The notes beneath the pieces were generated by a model, which worked only from the letters and a program-made list of their open reading frames with translations, did not search any database and had not been told where the DNA came from. 39,700 nt of DNA from Leptospirales bacterium (GTDB taxonomy: Bacteria; Spirochaetota; Leptospiria; Turneriellales; JAOUFE01). The position numbers were made by a program, and so were the translations under genes. The stretch is taken from positions 1 to 39,700 of the forward strand of contig JBEQLE010000039.1 of NCBI GenBank assembly GCA_040326155.1, given 5' to 3'. Below, in pieces: positions 10,058 through 29,268 of the stretch (the stretch's first letter is position 1; each line of letters opens with the position of its first letter).

Positions 10058-10429
10058 TTATTTAAAATAAAATTTATTCATTTTACAATCAAACTGCAAC
10101 AAAGTCGCTTTTTTGCGAATTTCCTGATCAGATAACGGATTTTCTGCGTCTTTATAAACATAATCGTCTGTTTCTGGATACGATATCGCGTAAATCTTCG
10201 AAACACAAATATCAAATTCACTATATGCCAGTCCTAATATAGATATAATCTGAGTATGTCTTAAAACCCGGGTGGTAACCCCAATATAGACTTCGATAGA
10301 AGTCGTATCGCAACATTCGTTTGTAATAACGATATCCCAAAACTTGTCCGGGTATGTATAGACATGAATGGATACTAATGAATAAAATGTATCGAAATTG
10401 CTTAATAATGTAACATCAAACCCTGCTTC
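10058..10429 (-). pseudogene. 5'-truncated ORF remnant (123 open codons, no start)
   Basis: EAGFDVTLL...FDCKMNKFYFK* is open for 123 codons and breaks at the edge of the 193-bp duplicated segment. Confidence 0.6.
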
Positions 10430-10430
10430 A

Positions 10431-10623
10431 GGTTTTTCTCGTTTATCGCTCTTTTATAGTCCCCCTGTTTATGGCCGCCATTTTTTATATTTTATTTCGA
10501 AAATTATATTATTTCATATTAGACAAGCCAAAATTATCCCCGTGCCTTGCAGCGTCTATTACCGTTTTTACAATTCTCATTTTAATGGTTATACCCTTTG
10601 CGATTGTTGGTATAAACCTGACC
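10431..10623 (+). repeat. 193-bp direct-repeat copy of 14319-14511 (internal part of the AI-2E gene)
   Basis: Manual alignment: 180/193 identical, no indels. Confidence 0.95.
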
Positions 10624-10662
10624 GTATATTATAGATGACTCCAGTTTTCTTTAAAGTGGTGG

Positions 10663-14184: not shown

Positions 14185-15324
14185 ATGATCAAGAAATTGA
14201 CAGATAAAATGAGCAAGAAGTCGAGTAAAGAGACAGAAGATGACTCTTTTGACCTTCTCGATTTTAGCAAAGTTATGCCCTGGATTACAACTGCAGTTTT
14301 TCTGGCATTCTTTGTTCTGGTTTTTCTCGTTTATCGCTCTTTTATTGTCCCCCTGTTTATGGCCGCCATTTTCTATATTCTATTTCGAAAATTATATTAT
14401 TTCATCTTGGACAATTCAAAATTTTCCCCGAGCCTTGCAGCGTCCATTACCGTTTTTACAATTCTCATTTTAATAGTTATGCCCTTTGCTATTGTTGGTA
14501 TAAACCTGACCTTAGAAATAAAATTTGTAATTGATTTTTTTCAAAAGCAGTTTACCACAGCGGCGCTAACAACACTTTATTCGGAACATACCTGGATTGG
14601 CGAGCTCACACGCATGAGTCTCGAAGAGTTTTCACAGCTACCTTCAAAAATTTCCCCGACTATACAAGATTTGGCCCCGAAAATTTTCAGCGCAGAAGTG
14701 CTGAGCCAGGGCCGTTTAATTGTGACAGACATATTTCGTATTTTGTTTAACTTTTTACTTTCTTTTGTCATTCTGTTTTTCTTGTTTCGTAACAGTGAAC
14801 ATATTAAAGAGTCTCTTTTTCGTAACCTGCCCTTTCCTGACGAGATTAAAAGCCAGATGGGGCAACGCATGATCGCAGTTTTCGACGCCGTTGTAAAAGG
14901 AAACCTGCTAATCGCCGTTGGCCAGGGAACATCCGTTGGAATTTATTTCTGGATATTCGGTCTTGCCACCCCTATTTTATACGGAATAGTTGGAGTTTTT
15001 CTCGGCCTGATACCGATTATCGGAACTACCGTCCTCTGGATTCCGGGAGCTTTGTATTTATATTTTCAAGGATTTACTATAAAAGCGCTTATTTTTGCTG
15101 TACTTTCAATGTCTACCTATTTGTTTCTTGAGAATATAGCGAAACCTCTACTGCTTGACAAAGAGCTGAATTTGCACCCGATGATACTCTTTTTTGCTTT
15201 TTTAGGCGGTCTTGCCGAATTTGGAATTAAAGGTTTAATTATCGGACCATTCGCTGTAACTATATTTCTTTCCATCTGGCAGATTATTAAAGTTTGGAAC
15301 TTGCGAAATGAATCGGTACAATAG
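14185..15324 (+). CDS. AI-2E family (PerM/YdiK-like) transporter
   Basis: Multi-TM protein; IPIIGTTVLWIP, ENIAKP, LHPMILFFAFLGGLAEFGIKGLIIGP. Confidence 0.9.
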   Translation: MIKKLTDKMSKKSSKETEDDSFDLLDFSKVMPWITTAVFLAFFVLVFLVYRSFIVPLFMAAIFYILFRKLYYFILDNSKFSPSLAASITVFTILILIVMPFAIVGINLTLEIKFVIDFFQKQFTTAALTTLYSEHTWIGELTRMSLEEFSQLPSKISPTIQDLAPKIFSAEVLSQGRLIVTDIFRILFNFLLSFVILFFLFRNSEHIKESLFRNLPFPDEIKSQMGQRMIAVFDAVVKGNLLIAVGQGTSVGIYFWIFGLATPILYGIVGVFLGLIPIIGTTVLWIPGALYLYFQGFTIKALIFAVLSMSTYLFLENIAKPLLLDKELNLHPMILFFAFLGGLAEFGIKGLIIGPFAVTIFLSIWQIIKVWNLRNESVQ

Positions 15325-20547: not shown

Positions 20548-20838
20548 ATGATACGATCATTTAAAGACACCTTTACTGAAGACCTGTTTCATGGAATAGA
20601 TACTGCAAAAACCAGAAAGGTTCCGAGAAATATAAAGAGTGTTGCCGTAAGGAAAATGGACCAACTAGACGCCGCCATAGATATAAGCGATATGAAAGCT
20701 CCACCGGGAAATCGACTAGAAAAGCTAAAAGGAGATTTTAAGGAGTATTACAGTATTCGCATAAATGACCAATACCGGATAATATTTCAATGGAACAACA
20801 GCCAGGCGTCTAATGTATCAGTGACAGATTACCATTAA
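20548..20838 (+). CDS. higB: HigB toxin
   Basis: MIRSFKD..PPGNRLEKLKGD..YSIRINDQYRIIF..DYH. Confidence 0.93.
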   Translation: MIRSFKDTFTEDLFHGIDTAKTRKVPRNIKSVAVRKMDQLDAAIDISDMKAPPGNRLEKLKGDFKEYYSIRINDQYRIIFQWNNSQASNVSVTDYH

Positions 20839-20849
20839 GGAGGCATAAA

Positions 20850-21137
20850 ATGATACCAAAAAACAGAATACCAACCCACCCTGGAGAGATCTTGCTAAAA
20901 GACTTTTTAGAACCAATGAAAATTACACAAGTAAAACTGGCAAAGCACTTGAAAGTGTCGGTACAAAGAATAAATGAAATTGTTCGCGGAAAAAGAGGAA
21001 TTACCCCGGAAACAGCCTGGCTGTTTTCTAAAGCCTTTAATAATTCACCCGAATTCTGGATCAACCTACAGACAAACTACGATTTAGTAAACAGCAAACC
21101 AAACATTACTATAAAACCTCTGTTTGCGACAGGTTGA
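20850..21137 (+). CDS. higA: HigA antitoxin (HTH)
   Basis: PTHPGEIL..FLEP..RINEIVRGKRGITPETA..EFWINLQ..YDL. Confidence 0.95.
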   Translation: MIPKNRIPTHPGEILLKDFLEPMKITQVKLAKHLKVSVQRINEIVRGKRGITPETAWLFSKAFNNSPEFWINLQTNYDLVNSKPNITIKPLFATG

Positions 21138-23171: not shown

Positions 23172-23307
23172 ACGTTTCGCTTTTATCTGACGTTTTGGGG
23201 CTACTTGAGTCAGCCATGCGAGCACCAAACGAACCTCAAGTTTCGTGCGAGTCCGAGCGGACTAGTCGGAAAGTGATAAAGTTTGGTTGAGCTATTTGCG
23301 AAACCCG
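23172..23307 (-). repeat. 3' part of an attC-like repeat split by the IS110 element
   Basis: Reverse complement aligns with 25892-26025 (GGT.TCGCAAATA.CTC.ACCA and TTGGTGCTCGCA.GGCTGACT..AGCCCCAAAACGTCAGATAAAA). Confidence 0.85.
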
Positions 23308-23319
23308 TCTATGATGACG

Positions 23320-24435
23320 TCAAGCAGCTTTCAATTTTTCCACCAGTAGTTCCTGCCTTTTTAAGAATGATATGTATCGTTTCATTTTAAATTGGTGGTT
23401 TTTCTCGTCTACAAAATAATGATACTGTTTTTTCTTTAGCATCTGATAAATTTCTGTAAATACCTTTCGGCAGATAGCCATACGTAGTTTTCCCTTTCCT
23501 TTTGTGCCATCTTTCTTTGCGGACCAGGCTTTTAGTTTGGGGTTACTGGTTTTAAAGTGGGTTAATGCCTGGGTTAAAAAAGTCACCGCTAGTTTCCTGG
23601 ATTGCTTATTTGTCGATAAAATTCTTGTTGTCTCGTTAGAGCTATCAACTCCCGGTGCGCTTCTTAAATACGAACAAAGTTTTTTTGAATTCGGGAACCT
23701 GGAAATATCTCCTATGTCTGCGATCACGGCAAGGGCCGTGAATACACTGATTCCACGCATACTCGTTAGGATATCAACTTCTTCAATAAAGTTCGCCCCG
23801 AGTTTTTGAATCGCATCCTTACTCGCTTTAATTTGCTCCGACAAACTCAGGTAGGCTGCCAATAAAATATCTACTTGCAAATTAGCAGACTCAGAAAGTT
23901 TGATTCCTTTCAACCTCTTGATGCAAGGTTTGCTTAAACTGAGAGTTGCACTGAGTGTTTTGAGGTTTTGCCTGTAGAGAGAGCGGATGCGGTTTTTAAG
24001 GGAACCGCTTTGCTTTTTCAGAACTTTGTAAGTGGTAAAGAGTGAGCGCAAATCTCGTACGTTTTGGTCGGGAATGTAAACAGGATCGAAAAGGCTTTCA
24101 CCAGAAGTCACTTGCATTTTTAATATCACTGCAAGCTTTTCTGCATCGACTTTATCAGTTTTCTTTTTCACCATACTTATGAGTTTTAATTTATACGGAT
24201 TAGCCACGTATATTTCACAAACGTATGGTCGCACAATATCGCAAAAAGAAAACGTATTGGTAGATGCCTCAACCATCACATACGTGTTTTTGTCCAGGCA
24301 TTCAGCAAACTTCAAAACATCTTGCGGGTTATTCAGTGAAAATTTTTCTCTGTATTTTATTCCATCCGGACTTATCTTGCAAATGTTAAAAGCGTTGCTG
24401 TGTAAATCTACTCCAATGAATTGTAAATTTTCCAT
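23320..24435 (-). CDS. IS110 family transposase/recombinase
   Basis: DEDD RuvC-like N-terminus (IGVDLH, VEAS, KTDKVDA) and Transposase_20 domain (LTSMRGIS..IGDISRF..APGVDSS); SD AAGGAG. Confidence 0.95.
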   Translation of the reverse strand: MENLQFIGVDLHSNAFNICKISPDGIKYREKFSLNNPQDVLKFAECLDKNTYVMVEASTNTFSFCDIVRPYVCEIYVANPYKLKLISMVKKKTDKVDAEKLAVILKMQVTSGESLFDPVYIPDQNVRDLRSLFTTYKVLKKQSGSLKNRIRSLYRQNLKTLSATLSLSKPCIKRLKGIKLSESANLQVDILLAAYLSLSEQIKASKDAIQKLGANFIEEVDILTSMRGISVFTALAVIADIGDISRFPNSKKLCSYLRSAPGVDSSNETTRILSTNKQSRKLAVTFLTQALTHFKTSNPKLKAWSAKKDGTKGKGKLRMAICRKVFTEIYQMLKKKQYHYFVDEKNHQFKMKRYISFLKRQELLVEKLKAA

Positions 24436-24475
24436 TTTGATTCTCCTTTACGGGAACAGGTTAATGAGTCTATTT

Positions 24476-24625
24476 ACCAAACGTCTATTCGGGGAATCAG
24501 GTGCAGGTTATAAAACTTGCACCTCCCCATTATTCCAATTCGGTTAATGGCCGCCAATCGAAGGCACGGGCTCACGAGGTCCCAGGGTTTCGCACGGCCA
24601 TTACATGGATATTACCCATACAAAA
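24476..24625 (-). ncRNA. Predicted IS110 bridge RNA (5' hairpin, target-binding loop, donor-binding loop)
   Basis: 9-bp stem 24545-24553/24595-24603 encloses guides matching both target flanks; a second stem-loop (24476-24544) carries a 7-nt match to the donor junction. Ends are approximate. Confidence 0.8.
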
Positions 24626-24696
24626 TTAACCATTCACCGTTTTATAATATTCTCTTTTAAAAATACAAAGGAATACTACTATGGTCATCATAGAAT

Positions 24697-24744
24697 CGAA
24701 GGCCCGTCCAGGGCGCGAGTAGATAAAATTTATTAGCTGAAATT
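24697..24744 (-). repeat. 5' part of the split attC-like repeat
   Basis: Reverse complement AATTTCAGCTAATAAATTTTATCTACTCGCGCCCTGGACGGGCCTTC aligns with AACTTCAGCTAACAAATTTTATCTGTTCGCGCCCTGTTCGGGCACTC at 25845. Confidence 0.85.
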
Positions 24745-24788
24745 GATAGGTTTTAATTCCTTCTATCGTATATAGATTTTTGTTTAAA

Positions 24789-25760
24789 CTATTCTTCCAA
24801 ATCCTCCGAGTCAATATGTTCGAAAAAGTATTTTCCTTCTATTGACTTATGACAAATTATCTGATTGTCTATCTGGAATGTTATATTGAGAGTATTATAT
24901 CTTTCGAATATTTCCAATGCACGTTCAGCCAATTCCAAAGAATCCTTTTGTAGTCGAATTTGTGTATCACCTTCTAATGCTTCTCTCTCAGCTTTGATTT
25001 TAGCCCTTTTTTCCTTTAAAAGCTCAGTTTCTTCAATCTTATGCTTTGTTTCTTCCTGCTTATATTCGTTTTCTAATTTTTTCGCTTTCCAATTAAGAGG
25101 GAAATAGATTATACTTTCTAACAGTTTCACGATTCCTTCTGCACTCAATGAAATAAATTGATCAAGAGAACCTTTACCAGTATCTACTAGATCTATTTTT
25201 TCTACCTTTGTTATGGCTTTCACTAATCGAAAAAATTCTACAGAAAACTCTAATGCCTTTAAATAATCATCTTTTTCATAACTAATTTTAATACCTAAAA
25301 TTTGGTTTGTTCGAGCATAACCATAAATTGGTTTTTGAATTATATTATGTGTTAAGGAATCGACAGAATTAATTAACTTCCCTCTAAAATCTAATCCCCC
25401 ATTTTCATTATAGTTTACGTAGTGAACCCAAGGAAATTCTCGAAAAGTATTTTCATCATCCTTTTCAATAGCGATAATTGCCTTATTTTGTCCAATGCCT
25501 AGACCCGCTTCAAAAGCTATACTAGGGATATTATTATTTAATACTATAATAATTAAATTACAATCCCTAATACTTCTTATTATTTGATCACTGATTATAT
25601 CTCCGAATTTCTCTTTTTCTATTTCTCCAGTTATAATTACTCCATTATCAACTAAAATAGGTTTTACTATATTATCAACGAACTCTATGTCTTCGCGGGA
25701 ATAGGTTATGTGACACTTTAACGTGAACTTTATTTGAAACTTCTCTAATGTTGCGATCAT
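24789..25760 (-). CDS. TIR-like/nucleoside 2-deoxyribosyltransferase-like domain fused to a coiled-coil C-terminus; candidate defence protein
   Basis: CHITYSRED..ISDQIIRSIRDCNLIIIVL..PSIAFEAGLGIGQNKAIIAI; C-terminus rich in E/K heptads; very AT-rich gene. Confidence 0.7.
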   Translation of the reverse strand: MIATLEKFQIKFTLKCHITYSREDIEFVDNIVKPILVDNGVIITGEIEKEKFGDIISDQIIRSIRDCNLIIIVLNNNIPSIAFEAGLGIGQNKAIIAIEKDDENTFREFPWVHYVNYNENGGLDFRGKLINSVDSLTHNIIQKPIYGYARTNQILGIKISYEKDDYLKALEFSVEFFRLVKAITKVEKIDLVDTGKGSLDQFISLSAEGIVKLLESIIYFPLNWKAKKLENEYKQEETKHKIEETELLKEKRAKIKAEREALEGDTQIRLQKDSLELAERALEIFERYNTLNITFQIDNQIICHKSIEGKYFFEHIDSEDLEE

Positions 25761-25847: not shown

Positions 25848-26037
25848 TTCAGCTAACAAATTTTATCTGTTCGCGCCCTGTTCGGGCACTCAGGTCTCGC
25901 AAATAACTCGACCACATTTTGGGGCTTCCTCCGTTTAACCGCCCTGATACCACAAATTATGGAGGTTAATTGGTGCTCGCAGGGCTGACTACGAAAGCCC
26001 CAAAACGTCAGATAAAATTGAAGCGTTGTGTACTGAA
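25848..26037 (+). repeat. Intact attC-like long palindromic repeat (~190 bp)
   Basis: GCTAAC..AATTTTATCTG (25859-69) pairs with CAGATAAAATT (26009-19)..GTTGTGT; inner TTTTGGGGCTT/AAGCCCCAAAA; outer TTCAG/CTGAA. Confidence 0.75.
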
Positions 26038-26189: not shown

Positions 26190-29165
26190 TTATCGATCAA
26201 TACGAACACGCAGTCGCCTTGCTCGCTCTCGAAATGCAGTCTCACCTCCTTCCAAGATGTCACATACAGCTTTTCGAATTGATGCGTTTTCTAGTCCACC
26301 GGCCCGGTAACTGATCGGGGGAAGACCACCTACATGATGCGGCCCAGCTTCAGCAATAATAATCTGATCAGCATCTGTGTTAATAACTAAATTAGCATTA
26401 TGAGTAACCATAATTACTTGACGCTTAGCTTTTGCAGCAATAAATAATGGCACAAGTTCTTCATTTACAGAATTAGGGTCTAAATTTTCTTCTGGCTGAT
26501 CTATAATCAATGGTCGATCGTCAGACTCATCCAAAGCAAGGTATAGTAGTAAAAGAACGATACCACGTGTTCCTGGAGAAAGTTTTCGAATATCAATTCC
26601 ATCGTATAGTATTTCATATTGAACCAATATATGATCAGTACCATATAACCAATGCGCAAATTGTTTCAACCACATTCTGTAATCAGCTTGTTGCGATGGG
26701 GAATAAGGAGCATGTTTGAACAAATCTTTCTGGTAAATGGCGATGAACTTGCTAATGGTATCTTGAATTTCTGACGCGGAACCTGTCTCCCATATTTGTT
26801 TAAGCATCTTTTCAGCAACCTCAGTCAAAGTTCCACGACCGTTGAATGGACCAGCCTTTCGGAGATCAAGAAGGTTTAACTCAGCAAAATTACCCCATTC
26901 ATTAACATCAACTATTCGGCGAACGTTAAAGCTGAGCTTACTTAATGTACCAGAGGTTGCTGAGAGTCGTTTCATTAACGGGTCATAAAGTTCAGCAAGA
27001 GTCGCCTGTTCTTTGATGATCGCCTCAAATATCCGTCTGTAGACATCTTCACGCTCGGACTGCAACGCCTTCCTACGATCGTTGGCACCCAATGCATCAG
27101 CTAGTTTCTCTTTAAAATTATTTAAGGCTGAATTCTCTTGTTCTATTCGTTTGGTCAGTGCACTGTATTGATCGCGAACCAACTTGTCCGCGCTGAACAA
27201 CGCTTCTAACCTCGTCATTTCAGCGATAATGATTGATAAATTTAACGTATTGAGATCAACATCATCAGATATTAATGGAGTGTTCGGATCCGCCGCTTGA
27301 ATCGGTGGGCCGTTAAGCTTTGCAACATTCTTATTAGCCCAATCAACATAACCACTGAGGCTTTTATCTACATCACCTTTATAGATAAGCAGGAATTCGG
27401 CCCATTGATCAGCGTCAAGGCCACTCTGGTTGTGTCGTTCTTGCGCTTGGCGAAGCAACTCAGGGCACTTTGTTGCACGTGTGCTAGCCACCTCATCCTG
27501 CAATGTAATGAAAGAACGATGTTGGTTCATAAAATTGCCGATTTTACTTCTTAGAGATTGGGCAGCCTCTGTAAGTTGCTCGTGCCGTTGAACCTGTGCT
27601 TGTGTACCCTTTACAGCAAGTTTTGCAAGGTCCGCACTATAGTCTCGGATCAATTTTTCTTTCTGTTCAACTTGCTTAGAAAGTGTTGCAATTGATCTCT
27701 CTTTCTCGAATTCAATAGCAATACGGTCAGAAATATCAGAGAGTGCACTTTCTTCACGTTCACGAGCCTGCTTAAATCGCAGAGTGCGCTGTTCTCGGAA
27801 TTCAGAGAAATTTATGGCACCCTCACGCTCATCCATCTGATGTGCTTCAAGGATGACTCTTTCGATTTCTTCAATGAGACCATCTGAAATACCATTTGAC
27901 GAGCAAAGCTCTTCAACAAATTGCTGGGATAGATATCTGGCACGGGGAAATGAAAGATGACTGTTCTCATCTTGACCAGCGAGTGATCGTTTTGACTCAT
28001 CACCGCCACACCAAGAGAGTGTGATAAATGCATTGCCAACAACAGGCCTCGCGCGGGCCAAAAAGGATGGACTGTTCCCTTCATTTGTGGTCCAAGTCGA
28101 ATTTGAAATGGAGTCACAACCCGCGGCAACCATATCTGCGAGAGCTGTTTTTCCAGATCCCCTGGCACCTATGATTGCAATTAAGCCAGGATTGAAAGGG
28201 ATTTCAGGAGTTTTGGCCCAACTTGCATTCGCTATTGATATGTGCGAAATAACTTGAGATTGCGTTGCGGAGAGAGGTGGTTCCGAACCTACGAATGCCC
28301 GTCCTTCTGGGTCGATACATGCTTGCCGCAAAGCATCAAATTCCAAACCACCCTTGATCCAACAAAATCGGTTCTCGATGGGCTTTCCGACTGTATTTAG
28401 TTCGTGCGCATCACTACCGTGAAGACAGGGCTTGGGGCCATTATAGCGTTCGCGCAATGAATCGATTTCAACGCTACGCTGCCCAAGCCAGAATTCCCTT
28501 TGGGCTGGGCTGCTCGCAAAAATGATGTGAGCAAACTTCTCAATTTCTTGACGTATAGTAGCGTCAGCTGCCTGGCGTACACCTGAAGTACCATCGCCTT
28601 CTGCTCCGGCAACTGCAATGAGGATGTTATTTTTCGCCCATTGACTATCCTGATATACATCACGCAACTGCTTAAAGTTGACTTTGAATTGGGTGGACCC
28701 ATGCTGTAGAGCGGTGCGGTTGTTAGTAATTTTGGAGTCTGCTTGCTTCCCAAGTCTTATTAGTTCTTTTCGCGTACAATCAAAACAATCGCCATATGCT
28801 TGAAATTGTAATCGCCCCAAAATTCTTTGAAGTTCATCTACGTGTTCGGGATCTTCGGGGCTAACCAACAGGTGGATATTAACGAAGCCAGTTTTTGCCG
28901 CTACATCTAATCGAAGTTCGACATTAGGGAATACTAACTGAACGTCAGGAAGGCGGCCGTCATCCATATGTTTCAGTACCTTTTCGTATGTGTCAGTAAT
29001 GTAATATTCAGTAACAGCAACAGCCTCGATTTTTGGAACAGCACCTTCAATAGCGGTGAAGTATTTATCCCAAGGATCATCACCATCAAACTGATTGTTG
29101 AGTGTTGTGCCGGGAGCATGAACATGGGGCTCCCAGCGTTTCCATTGTGAACCTCGGTTTAGCAT
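26190..29165 (-). CDS. PHP-domain + SMC/ABC-type ATPase (TrlF/Ppl-like)
   Basis: RGSQWKRWEPHVHAP, NVELR, HGSDAH (PHP); GARGSGKT, coiled coil, LSPGTRG, PLIIDQPEENLD, VTHN. Start at MLNRG is chosen for SD AAGGAG (ORF track start 29192). Confidence 0.88.
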   Translation of the reverse strand: MLNRGSQWKRWEPHVHAPGTTLNNQFDGDDPWDKYFTAIEGAVPKIEAVAVTEYYITDTYEKVLKHMDDGRLPDVQLVFPNVELRLDVAAKTGFVNIHLLVSPEDPEHVDELQRILGRLQFQAYGDCFDCTRKELIRLGKQADSKITNNRTALQHGSTQFKVNFKQLRDVYQDSQWAKNNILIAVAGAEGDGTSGVRQAADATIRQEIEKFAHIIFASSPAQREFWLGQRSVEIDSLRERYNGPKPCLHGSDAHELNTVGKPIENRFCWIKGGLEFDALRQACIDPEGRAFVGSEPPLSATQSQVISHISIANASWAKTPEIPFNPGLIAIIGARGSGKTALADMVAAGCDSISNSTWTTNEGNSPSFLARARPVVGNAFITLSWCGGDESKRSLAGQDENSHLSFPRARYLSQQFVEELCSSNGISDGLIEEIERVILEAHQMDEREGAINFSEFREQRTLRFKQAREREESALSDISDRIAIEFEKERSIATLSKQVEQKEKLIRDYSADLAKLAVKGTQAQVQRHEQLTEAAQSLRSKIGNFMNQHRSFITLQDEVASTRATKCPELLRQAQERHNQSGLDADQWAEFLLIYKGDVDKSLSGYVDWANKNVAKLNGPPIQAADPNTPLISDDVDLNTLNLSIIIAEMTRLEALFSADKLVRDQYSALTKRIEQENSALNNFKEKLADALGANDRRKALQSEREDVYRRIFEAIIKEQATLAELYDPLMKRLSATSGTLSKLSFNVRRIVDVNEWGNFAELNLLDLRKAGPFNGRGTLTEVAEKMLKQIWETGSASEIQDTISKFIAIYQKDLFKHAPYSPSQQADYRMWLKQFAHWLYGTDHILVQYEILYDGIDIRKLSPGTRGIVLLLLYLALDESDDRPLIIDQPEENLDPNSVNEELVPLFIAAKAKRQVIMVTHNANLVINTDADQIIIAEAGPHHVGGLPPISYRAGGLENASIRKAVCDILEGGETAFRERARRLRVRIDR

Positions 29166-29268
29166 TCTTTCTCCTTTGTCTAATGATGTCATTTCGTTTC
29201 AAATTCAATATAAAACATATTAATATTTAGTATCTGAAATATTCTGGAATAATCAATAATGTACAGTA

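Follow-up and report, generated by a model that had tools for sequence, protein, structure and literature searches.

The RNA-guided mechanism of insertion sequences (IS) of the IS110 family has been known since 2024, and the described systems closest to the locus analysed here are IS621 and the IS1111 group. In the bridge RNA of IS621, the sense-strand sequence found on the 5' sides of the loops is that of the left arm of the target and of the terminus of the right end (RE) (PMC11208160, PMC11208158). Subterminal repeats of the IS1111 group range from 7 to 17 bp. They are usually 11-13 bp, and this length defines the group together with an RNA located downstream of the recombinase gene, "a few" members having an upstream non-coding region; in IS1111 seekRNAs, the complement of the top strand is placed 5' of the complement of the bottom strand, the reverse of the order in the IS110 type (PMC11187229). 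We have investigated an element on the minus strand of a 39,700-nucleotide (nt) stretch of a Leptospirales genome (GCA_040326155.1, contig JBEQLE010000039.1, positions 1 to 39,700), the whole of which is referred to as the window. The element lies in a site to which its own guides correspond, and the identification of its two-loop leader as a putative bridge RNA for both the target and its own ends is supported, with backing from comparative covariation. Observed anatomy, guide-flank matches, covariation, catalytic residues and junction-promoter geometry combine in the reading of the element as a genuine and intact IS110-family insertion sequence of the bridge/seek-RNA kind, to which we assign a probability of about 0.9. 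Judged from its sequence, the element is probably still functional, and a new programmable recombinase is a reasonable hypothesis. The mechanism is already known, the architecture is a variant, and the clade to which the element belongs has no ISfinder name.

Element ends, guides and upstream RNA

Removal of the ~1.39 kb span 23308-24698 restores the target around CG base for base, as an earlier note on this DNA had proposed, and the CG core it had named is read directly in the sequence at both junctions. In alignments, the restored site corresponds to unoccupied copies of a genomic repeat, with no duplication beyond the 2-nt core. The flank on the RE side, 23297-23306, is TGCGAAACCC (as arm plus core, TGCGAAACC-CG at 23297-23307), and that on the left-end (LE) side is CG-AAGGCCC at 24697-24705, AAGGCCC itself occupying 24699-24705. 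LE is long (261 nt, 24436-24696) and RE is short (12 nt), the longest perfect inverted run between them being 11 bp within a clade range of 4-14 bp. The features of the element are as follows.

23308-24696, minus strand: IS110-family element body, 1391 nt including one CG copy.
23306-23307: core dinucleotide CG at the RE junction, on the 3' side of the recombinase gene; in most relatives CG likewise follows ...CATAGA.
24697-24698: core dinucleotide CG at the LE junction, on the bridge-RNA side.
23308-23318: subterminal inverted repeat, RE arm, TCTATGATGAC on the plus strand.
24684-24694: subterminal inverted repeat, LE arm, which includes the -10-like TATGAT at 24692-24687 of the minus strand.
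23318-23323, minus strand: -35-like hexamer TTGACG in RE, half of a junction promoter of the circular form only.
23320-24435, minus strand: recombinase gene, 371 amino acids (aa), with a DEDD RuvC-like domain and a Tnp domain.
24468-24611, minus strand: putative bridge RNA core as matched by the covariance model, 94.5 bits.
24545-24603, minus strand: target-binding module, consisting of an outer 9-bp stem, 5' guide, inner UGGG/CCCG hairpin, 3' guide and handshake AUU.
24476-24544, minus strand: donor-binding module, with an outer stem 24544-24538 / 24482-24476 and an inner hairpin between the guides.
24537-24529 and 24490-24482, minus strand: donor 5' guide and donor 3' guide, the latter GAAUAGACG.

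The guides proposed in the earlier note hold when compared with the flanks and the element ends. The 5' target guide, 24594-24585, is UGCGAAACCC and is identical to 23297-23306 at 10 of 10 positions, while the 3' target guide GCCUUCG (24565-24559) is complementary to CGAAGGC at 24697-24703 at 7 of 7. Immediately 3' of the latter, the handshake AUU (24558-24556) matches the first bases of the left end of the element at 3 of 3 positions, such that 3' target guide and handshake together read GCCUUCGAUU, or GCCTT-CG-ATT. In the donor loop, AUAGACG (24488-24482) of the 3' guide is complementary to CGTCTAT at 23306-12 and UGGAAU (24537-24532) of the 5' guide differs from TAGAAT (24691-96) at one of six positions, at which G-T pairing would still be possible.

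Covariation of guides with insertion sites, a check named beforehand in the earlier note, is observed across the relatives. Ends were defined without use of the target guides, the left end being placed 4 nt before the conserved TATGAT and the right end at ...CATAGA plus core, downstream of TTGAC. The 25 distinct 5' target guides match their own RE flanks at 170 of 243 nt (permuted, 88.5 +/- 7.2), 22 distinct 3' target guides score 136 against their own LE flank plus core (permuted, 82.5 +/- 5.7) and 87 of 110 positions pair between 22 donor 5' guides and the LE starts of the same elements (permuted, 62.5 +/- 3.6), the observed value being reached by 0 of 20,000 permutations in each of the three tests, figures which overstate independence because the relatives are mutually related. 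Of 30 distinct RNAs, 26 have the same core in target loop and donor loop (21 CG, 5 TG); in three others the cores are offset by a 1-nt register shift, and in L024 they are not the same (CA versus CG). In L008 and L018 the guide match needs a 1-nt bulge.

The leader that precedes the recombinase gene (263 nt; 265 nt as folded) forms two internal-loop modules, at -82.6 kcal/mol, compared with -61.7 +/- 4.8 kcal/mol for 200 shuffled sequences, of which 0 are as stable (z -4.35). The outer stem of the target module, 24545-53 / 24595-603, is a perfect 9-bp complement (TAATGGCCG / CGGCCATTA), and both this stem and the fold of the upstream minus-strand region into target-loop and donor-loop modules agree with what had been proposed, the fold being backed by compensatory changes in the relatives. 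These were fetched as 24 loci from species genomes, mostly metagenome-assembled genomes of Spirochaetota together with Ignavibacteriaceae, Bacillota and two labelled archaeal, and 79 loci from metagenomes, and 21 sequences were aligned over the leader core. RNAalifold alone gave the target-loop stems only; those of the donor loop were drawn in manually before being put to the test. Four helices are supported in this alignment, namely both outer stems and both inner stems (UGGG/CCCG). The 21 hand-defined pairs are paired in 91.4% of 440 cells, as against 22-49% when slid by 1-3 columns, and two-sided, compensatory changes occur at 11 of the 21. The observed covariation was reached by 0 of 500 shuffles, a figure inflated by kinship among the relatives.

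A covariance model (R1) has 45 matches in 100 sources (289 kb), 43 of them on the recombinase strand 5' of the gene and the other two weak and antisense. Matches outside the seed were obtained in L014, L027, L037, L038, L041, L043, L044, L046, L047/48, L059 and L064, and weakly in L057. The model reaches relatives down to ~33% protein identity; loci below ~32% are without an R1 match, L057 excepted, and presumably carry different RNA types. The whole window has no match in Rfam at gathering thresholds, and in E-value mode three matches lie over the leader, all far under threshold, a result which is neutral with respect to the bridge-RNA reading.

The 371-aa recombinase gene reported previously on the minus strand is confirmed as the sole long open reading frame (ORF) within the element (24435 to 23320). 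Its product matches PF01548 (DEDD_Tnp_IS110, 2.5e-12), PF02371 (Transposase_20, 1.8e-12) and NCBIfam NF033542, 'IS110 family RNA-guided transposase' (174.4 bits, cut-off 140). Homologues at E <= 0.001 number 956 proteins among 3,902 candidates, the closest having 69% identity and the majority being located on 1.3-2 kb contigs. A 25-homologue profile matches the IS621 transposase 8wt6_A (E 5.6e-7) and ISCro4 9t56_A (E 8.7e-7). D10, E56, D94, D97 and S266 are invariant or nearly so across the 25 homologues and stand opposite D11, E60, D102, D105 and S241 of IS621 in the profile alignment, residue numbers being counted on the IS621 protein sequence; the first four of these we take to be the catalytic DEDD positions of IS621. 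S241 is its catalytic serine (PMC11208158). A tblastn comparison with plasmids returned 613 records, none of which reaches 60% identity (best, 31.4%) or has an annotation more specific than 'IS110 family transposase', such that the protein is not placed on either the IS110 or the IS1111 branch.

Joining of RE to LE creates the series TTGACG, 16 nt, TATGAT, which resembles a sigma-70 promoter in a consensus-level test. A -35/-10 pair with a spacer of 16-18 nt is rebuilt in 19 of 21 distinct RE/LE pairs, and in the other two the pattern was mis-picked. A promoter-like site 5' of the leader was not found in the integrated copy. On the plus strand, a further promoter-like match (TTGAGC, 17 nt, TATGAT; 23287-23315) spans the junction of repeat and RE and is directed into the recombinase gene in antisense orientation; the palindromic nature of the element ends probably accounts for it.

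Copies, target repeat and alternative explanations

The assembly (4.26 Mb, 171 contigs, 94.7% complete) contains one full copy of the element. A second copy end is detected at C67:1-32 (L003; C denotes contigs of the assembly), where the final 32 nt of the left end, 91% identical, are followed by CG-AAAGCCCGCC. This copy end is at the same repeat-family site, and an intact repeat copy is located at C67:401-554. A second IS110-family element (~50% aa identity) is split over C119:1-~440 (minus) and C114:1-~297 (plus) (L111, L112) and has its own bridge RNA match (R1, 87.7 bits). The earlier note had considered other copies at sites unrelated to the guides; instead, the guides of this element, CACAGACUC and UAAUAACG, differ from those of the window element and match its own flanks, CG-AGTCTGTAG and ...ACATAA-CG (8/9 and 6 nt). 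On its right-hand side, the C119/C114 element is flanked by the terminus of a different miniature repeat (inverted ends GAGKCTGTAGAATAAGT, 18 genomic matches), which often abuts the ...TTTGTT end of the 155-nt repeat described below.

Several observations, in addition to the kinship among relatives noted above, weigh against an intact bridge-RNA element. Only one full copy is present despite two perfect and 15 one-mismatch targets that are unoccupied, so that activity may be low or arrival recent; neither a circle junction nor a polymorphic empty site at the exact locus was seen. The RE side of L059 is essentially unmatched (4/10), and natural sites of multicopy relatives are imperfect, as in OY764868, where the three sites whose RE flank is usable agree with the guide at 5-6 of 9 nt. 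Automated picking of RE gave a wrong end for L013 and L022 and none for L020 and L021, although errors of this kind lower rather than raise the observed guide score. Finally, transcription, RNA-protein binding, circle formation and present-day activity are inferred by analogy.

The alternative that survives best, although we consider it unlikely, is that the element is a fossil which has the anatomy of a bridge-RNA insertion sequence in a copy that is no longer mobile. The single full copy and the unoccupied perfect targets point in this direction, as does the patchy distribution: 3 of 61 related genomes, host included, have matches at E <= 1e-30, and the two found among the 60 relatives hold fragments only, of 109-166 aligned residues. 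Against it stand an open 371-aa frame that keeps all five catalytic positions, guides that fit the present flanks perfectly, subterminal repeats free of mismatches and an intact junction promoter. Furthermore, the 91% identical second copy end is present, and repeated IS copies collapse in draft assemblies.

Insertion is into a conserved position of a ~155-nt repeat that is dispersed in the genome and folds strongly. Three nhmmer rounds gave 32, 71 and 91 matches, distributed over 43 of the 171 contigs; intact copies are ~155 nt, and a long form has an AT-rich insert of ~60 nt directly 5' of the insertion site. As single-stranded DNA, a repeat copy has fold z-scores of -5.6 on one strand and -5.9 on the other. 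Within the window the repeat is represented as follows.

23191-23305, plus strand: 5' part of the disrupted copy, the final 9 nt (23297-23305) being the target arm of the 5' guide; the nhmmer match, 23191-23307, covers profile positions 1-117.
24699-24745, plus strand: 3' part of the disrupted copy, in which AAGGC (24699-24703) is the target arm of the 3' guide.
25854-26007, minus strand: second, intact copy, inverted, with the equivalent site diverged and unoccupied.

The restored 18-nt target has no further match in the window at <=3 mismatches. Genome sites for the 16 guided bases number two without mismatch, both in repeat copies, 15 with one mismatch (12 in repeat copies) and eight with two (7 in repeat copies). 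Repeat copies thus hold 14 of 17 sites at <=1 mismatch and 21 of 25 at <=2, for which our own arithmetic gives a chance expectation of roughly two sites.

The earlier note termed this target attC-like. It is improbable, more so than a fossil, that the element belongs to the IS1111-attC group and that the repeat is the integron attC of a cassette array. The repeat has YAAC ... GTTA ends and a long imperfect hairpin, same-orientation copies 1-4 kb apart form arrays on several small contigs, guide order and 11-bp subterminal repeats are IS1111-like, and attC-targeting elements of the IS1111 family are known (cited in PMC11187229). Against this, the integron integrase model TIGR02249 gives eight partial matches in the 94.7%-complete assembly, none at cut-off, the recombinase beside the C106 repeat array is XerD (356 bits, cut-off 329.6) and the tyrosine recombinases of C12 and C141 are under every model cut-off. 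Repeat copies also occur in both orientations between genes of mixed orientation, the window included, and the guide RNA is 5' of the recombinase gene rather than 3', where it is found in IS1111-attC elements. The absence of an integrase at cut-off, the XerD assignment and the occurrence of both orientations leave the attC-like label without an established basis, and we therefore use the term structured intergenic repeat; by nature it may be a miniature inverted-repeat transposable element (MITE), a repetitive extragenic palindromic (REP)-like sequence or attC-like.

The C12 protein is a 352-aa tyrosine recombinase near a contig end (C12:8247-9305; L004:1237-2295, minus). Its scores on the models of XerA, XerC and integron integrases are similar, in each case under the cut-off, and it is without ~40 residues at the extra segment of the integron-integrase model. 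A GTTATCGGCA... stretch located 5' of its gene is like the sequence after some repeat copies.

It is very improbable that the leader is merely a structured 5' untranslated region, acting for example in translational control, with flank matches arising from target copying or duplication: the structure does lie directly 5' of the ribosome-binding site with no terminator between, and IS110 non-coding ends were once believed to regulate expression (PMC11208160), but the matching segments are in internal loops and not at termini, they vary with their own flanks in more than 20 distinct elements while compensatory changes keep the stems paired, and one guide is identical and the other complementary to its flank, as in the proven systems (PMC11208160, PMC11208158, PMC11187229).

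Proposed mechanism and neighbourhood

For the window element as an intact bridge-RNA insertion sequence, we propose the following series of events, modelled on described systems. By analogy with IS621 and ISEc11, the element would be excised in circular form, with RE and LE joined at the CG core. This would rebuild the promoter, TTGACG in RE and TATGAT in LE separated by 16 nt, which would transcribe the LE leader and the recombinase gene, and the leader would then fold into its two internal-loop modules. In the target loop, the 5' side UGCGAAACCC would pair with one strand of the RE-adjacent target arm and the 3' side GCCUUCG with the opposite strand of the LE-adjacent arm, the handshake AUU pairing with the incoming LE end after strand exchange. 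The donor loop would read both element ends likewise. Recombinase tetramers would exchange strands at the CG core, inserting the circle without duplication, and landing would occur at a conserved 16-18-nt position in the multicopy ~155-nt repeat, which would offer many harmless sites.

For the host, a multicopy structured repeat would serve as a landing pad; the related C119/C114 element is directed at the end of a different miniature repeat. The guide code is defined as ~9-10 plus 5 target positions, the core and three handshake bases. Bridge/seek-RNA recombinases are under development as programmable DNA-insertion tools, to which the element adds a well-documented natural CG-core system, the known mechanism being unchanged.

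A 323-aa ORF (24789-25760, minus), positioned between two inverted repeat copies, has no match in Pfam or NCBIfam; it is adjoined by a gene for a 1000-aa protein (26190-29192, minus) with weak matches to SMC_N and AAA_21 (AbiEii-type), and the two may form a small defence-like island. Elsewhere in the window, a HigB-like toxin (PF05015) is paired with an HTH_3 antitoxin at 20548-21137 (plus), and a 200-nt direct repeat (10427-10626 / 14315-14514) is 93% identical over copies 3.9 kb apart.

Comparison with known bridge-RNA and seekRNA systems

The layout of IS621 was proposed for this element in the earlier note, and the part of that claim which stands is the two-loop RNA upstream of the gene. 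As in IS621, the recombinase is of the DEDD plus serine type and the RNA is in the long left end, 5' of the gene (PMC11208160, PMC11208158); there are two simple internal loops, target loop before donor loop, each reading both arms and the 2-nt core, with handshake bases following the 3' target guide, a promoter, here predicted, at the RE-LE junction and a multicopy repeat as target. What does not stand is the guide polarity. In IS621, the 5' loop sides AUCGGGCCU and ACAGUAUCA carry the sense strand, whereas in the window element the 3' sides do, which is the order of IS1111 seekRNAs, and this reversal is found in every relative examined. The polarity of IS621 was read from its listed sequences, in which the rows labelled Donor and Target appear to be swapped, and from the published text. 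As read from the sequences, the RNA and recombinase genes are thus oppositely placed relative to the crossover in the two systems; a 180-degree rotation of the DNA superimposes IS621 and the window element, so the chemistry need not differ. IS621 differs further in its core (CT, compared with CG here) and in its subterminal repeats, 2-3 bp as opposed to 11 bp, and the inner stems here are a conserved UGGG/CCCG pair. The recombinase, at 371 aa versus 326 aa, is not the compact enzyme that had been claimed, and its likeness to that of IS621 is detectable by profile only.

Guide order is shared with the IS1111 elements ISEc11, ISKpn4, ISPa11 and ISPst6, as is the length of the subterminal repeats, 11-13 bp there and 11 bp here, but their RNA is downstream of the recombinase gene and not upstream (PMC11187229). 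Specific targets, the lack of a target duplication and a circular intermediate with a junction promoter, here predicted, are likewise features of IS1111 seekRNA systems. In contrast, extensions beyond the repeats are 7 and 3 bp in IS1111 and 2 and 0 bp here (4 and 2 with the core), and donor guides are in a multi-loop in many IS1111 RNAs but in a simple internal loop in the window element. With IS621, ISPpu9 and ISPpu10, which target REP or other repeats, the element has in common the use of one conserved position in a multicopy intergenic palindromic repeat, although the repeat here is of another family and much longer (~155 nt, modular, with an optional insert of ~60 nt). Similarly, the IS1111-attC group, reportedly described by Tetu and Holmes (2008) and by Post and Hall (2009), comprises elements of this kind aimed at a structured, recombination-site-like repeat; it differs in its downstream RNA, and no integron integrase was found here.

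The 1,054-protein table of PMC11208160 includes two Spirochaetes entries with the motifs of the clade and no ISfinder name. IS1533 and ISLin1, spirochaete names of the IS110 family in the same table, were considered as clade members and rejected, as their motifs are different. The combination of traits is not described in the passages of the literature that the searches covered. IS1111-like polarity and subterminal repeats, combined with an IS110-like RNA position and simple loops, indicate that the clade is a mosaic. That this clade, mostly of Spirochaetota, constitutes a third, undescribed architectural type of bridge-RNA element is a tentative and rather doubtful suggestion. Such a type would have the two-loop, left-end RNA of IS621 together with guide polarity and long subterminal repeats of the IS1111 kind, and RNA position would then be separable from guide polarity. 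The clade could represent an intermediate stage in the proposed relocation of the bridge RNA from one element end to the other, which sets IS110 apart from IS1111. The mosaic layout bears on the divergence of IS110 and IS1111 and on the linkage between RNA position and guide polarity.

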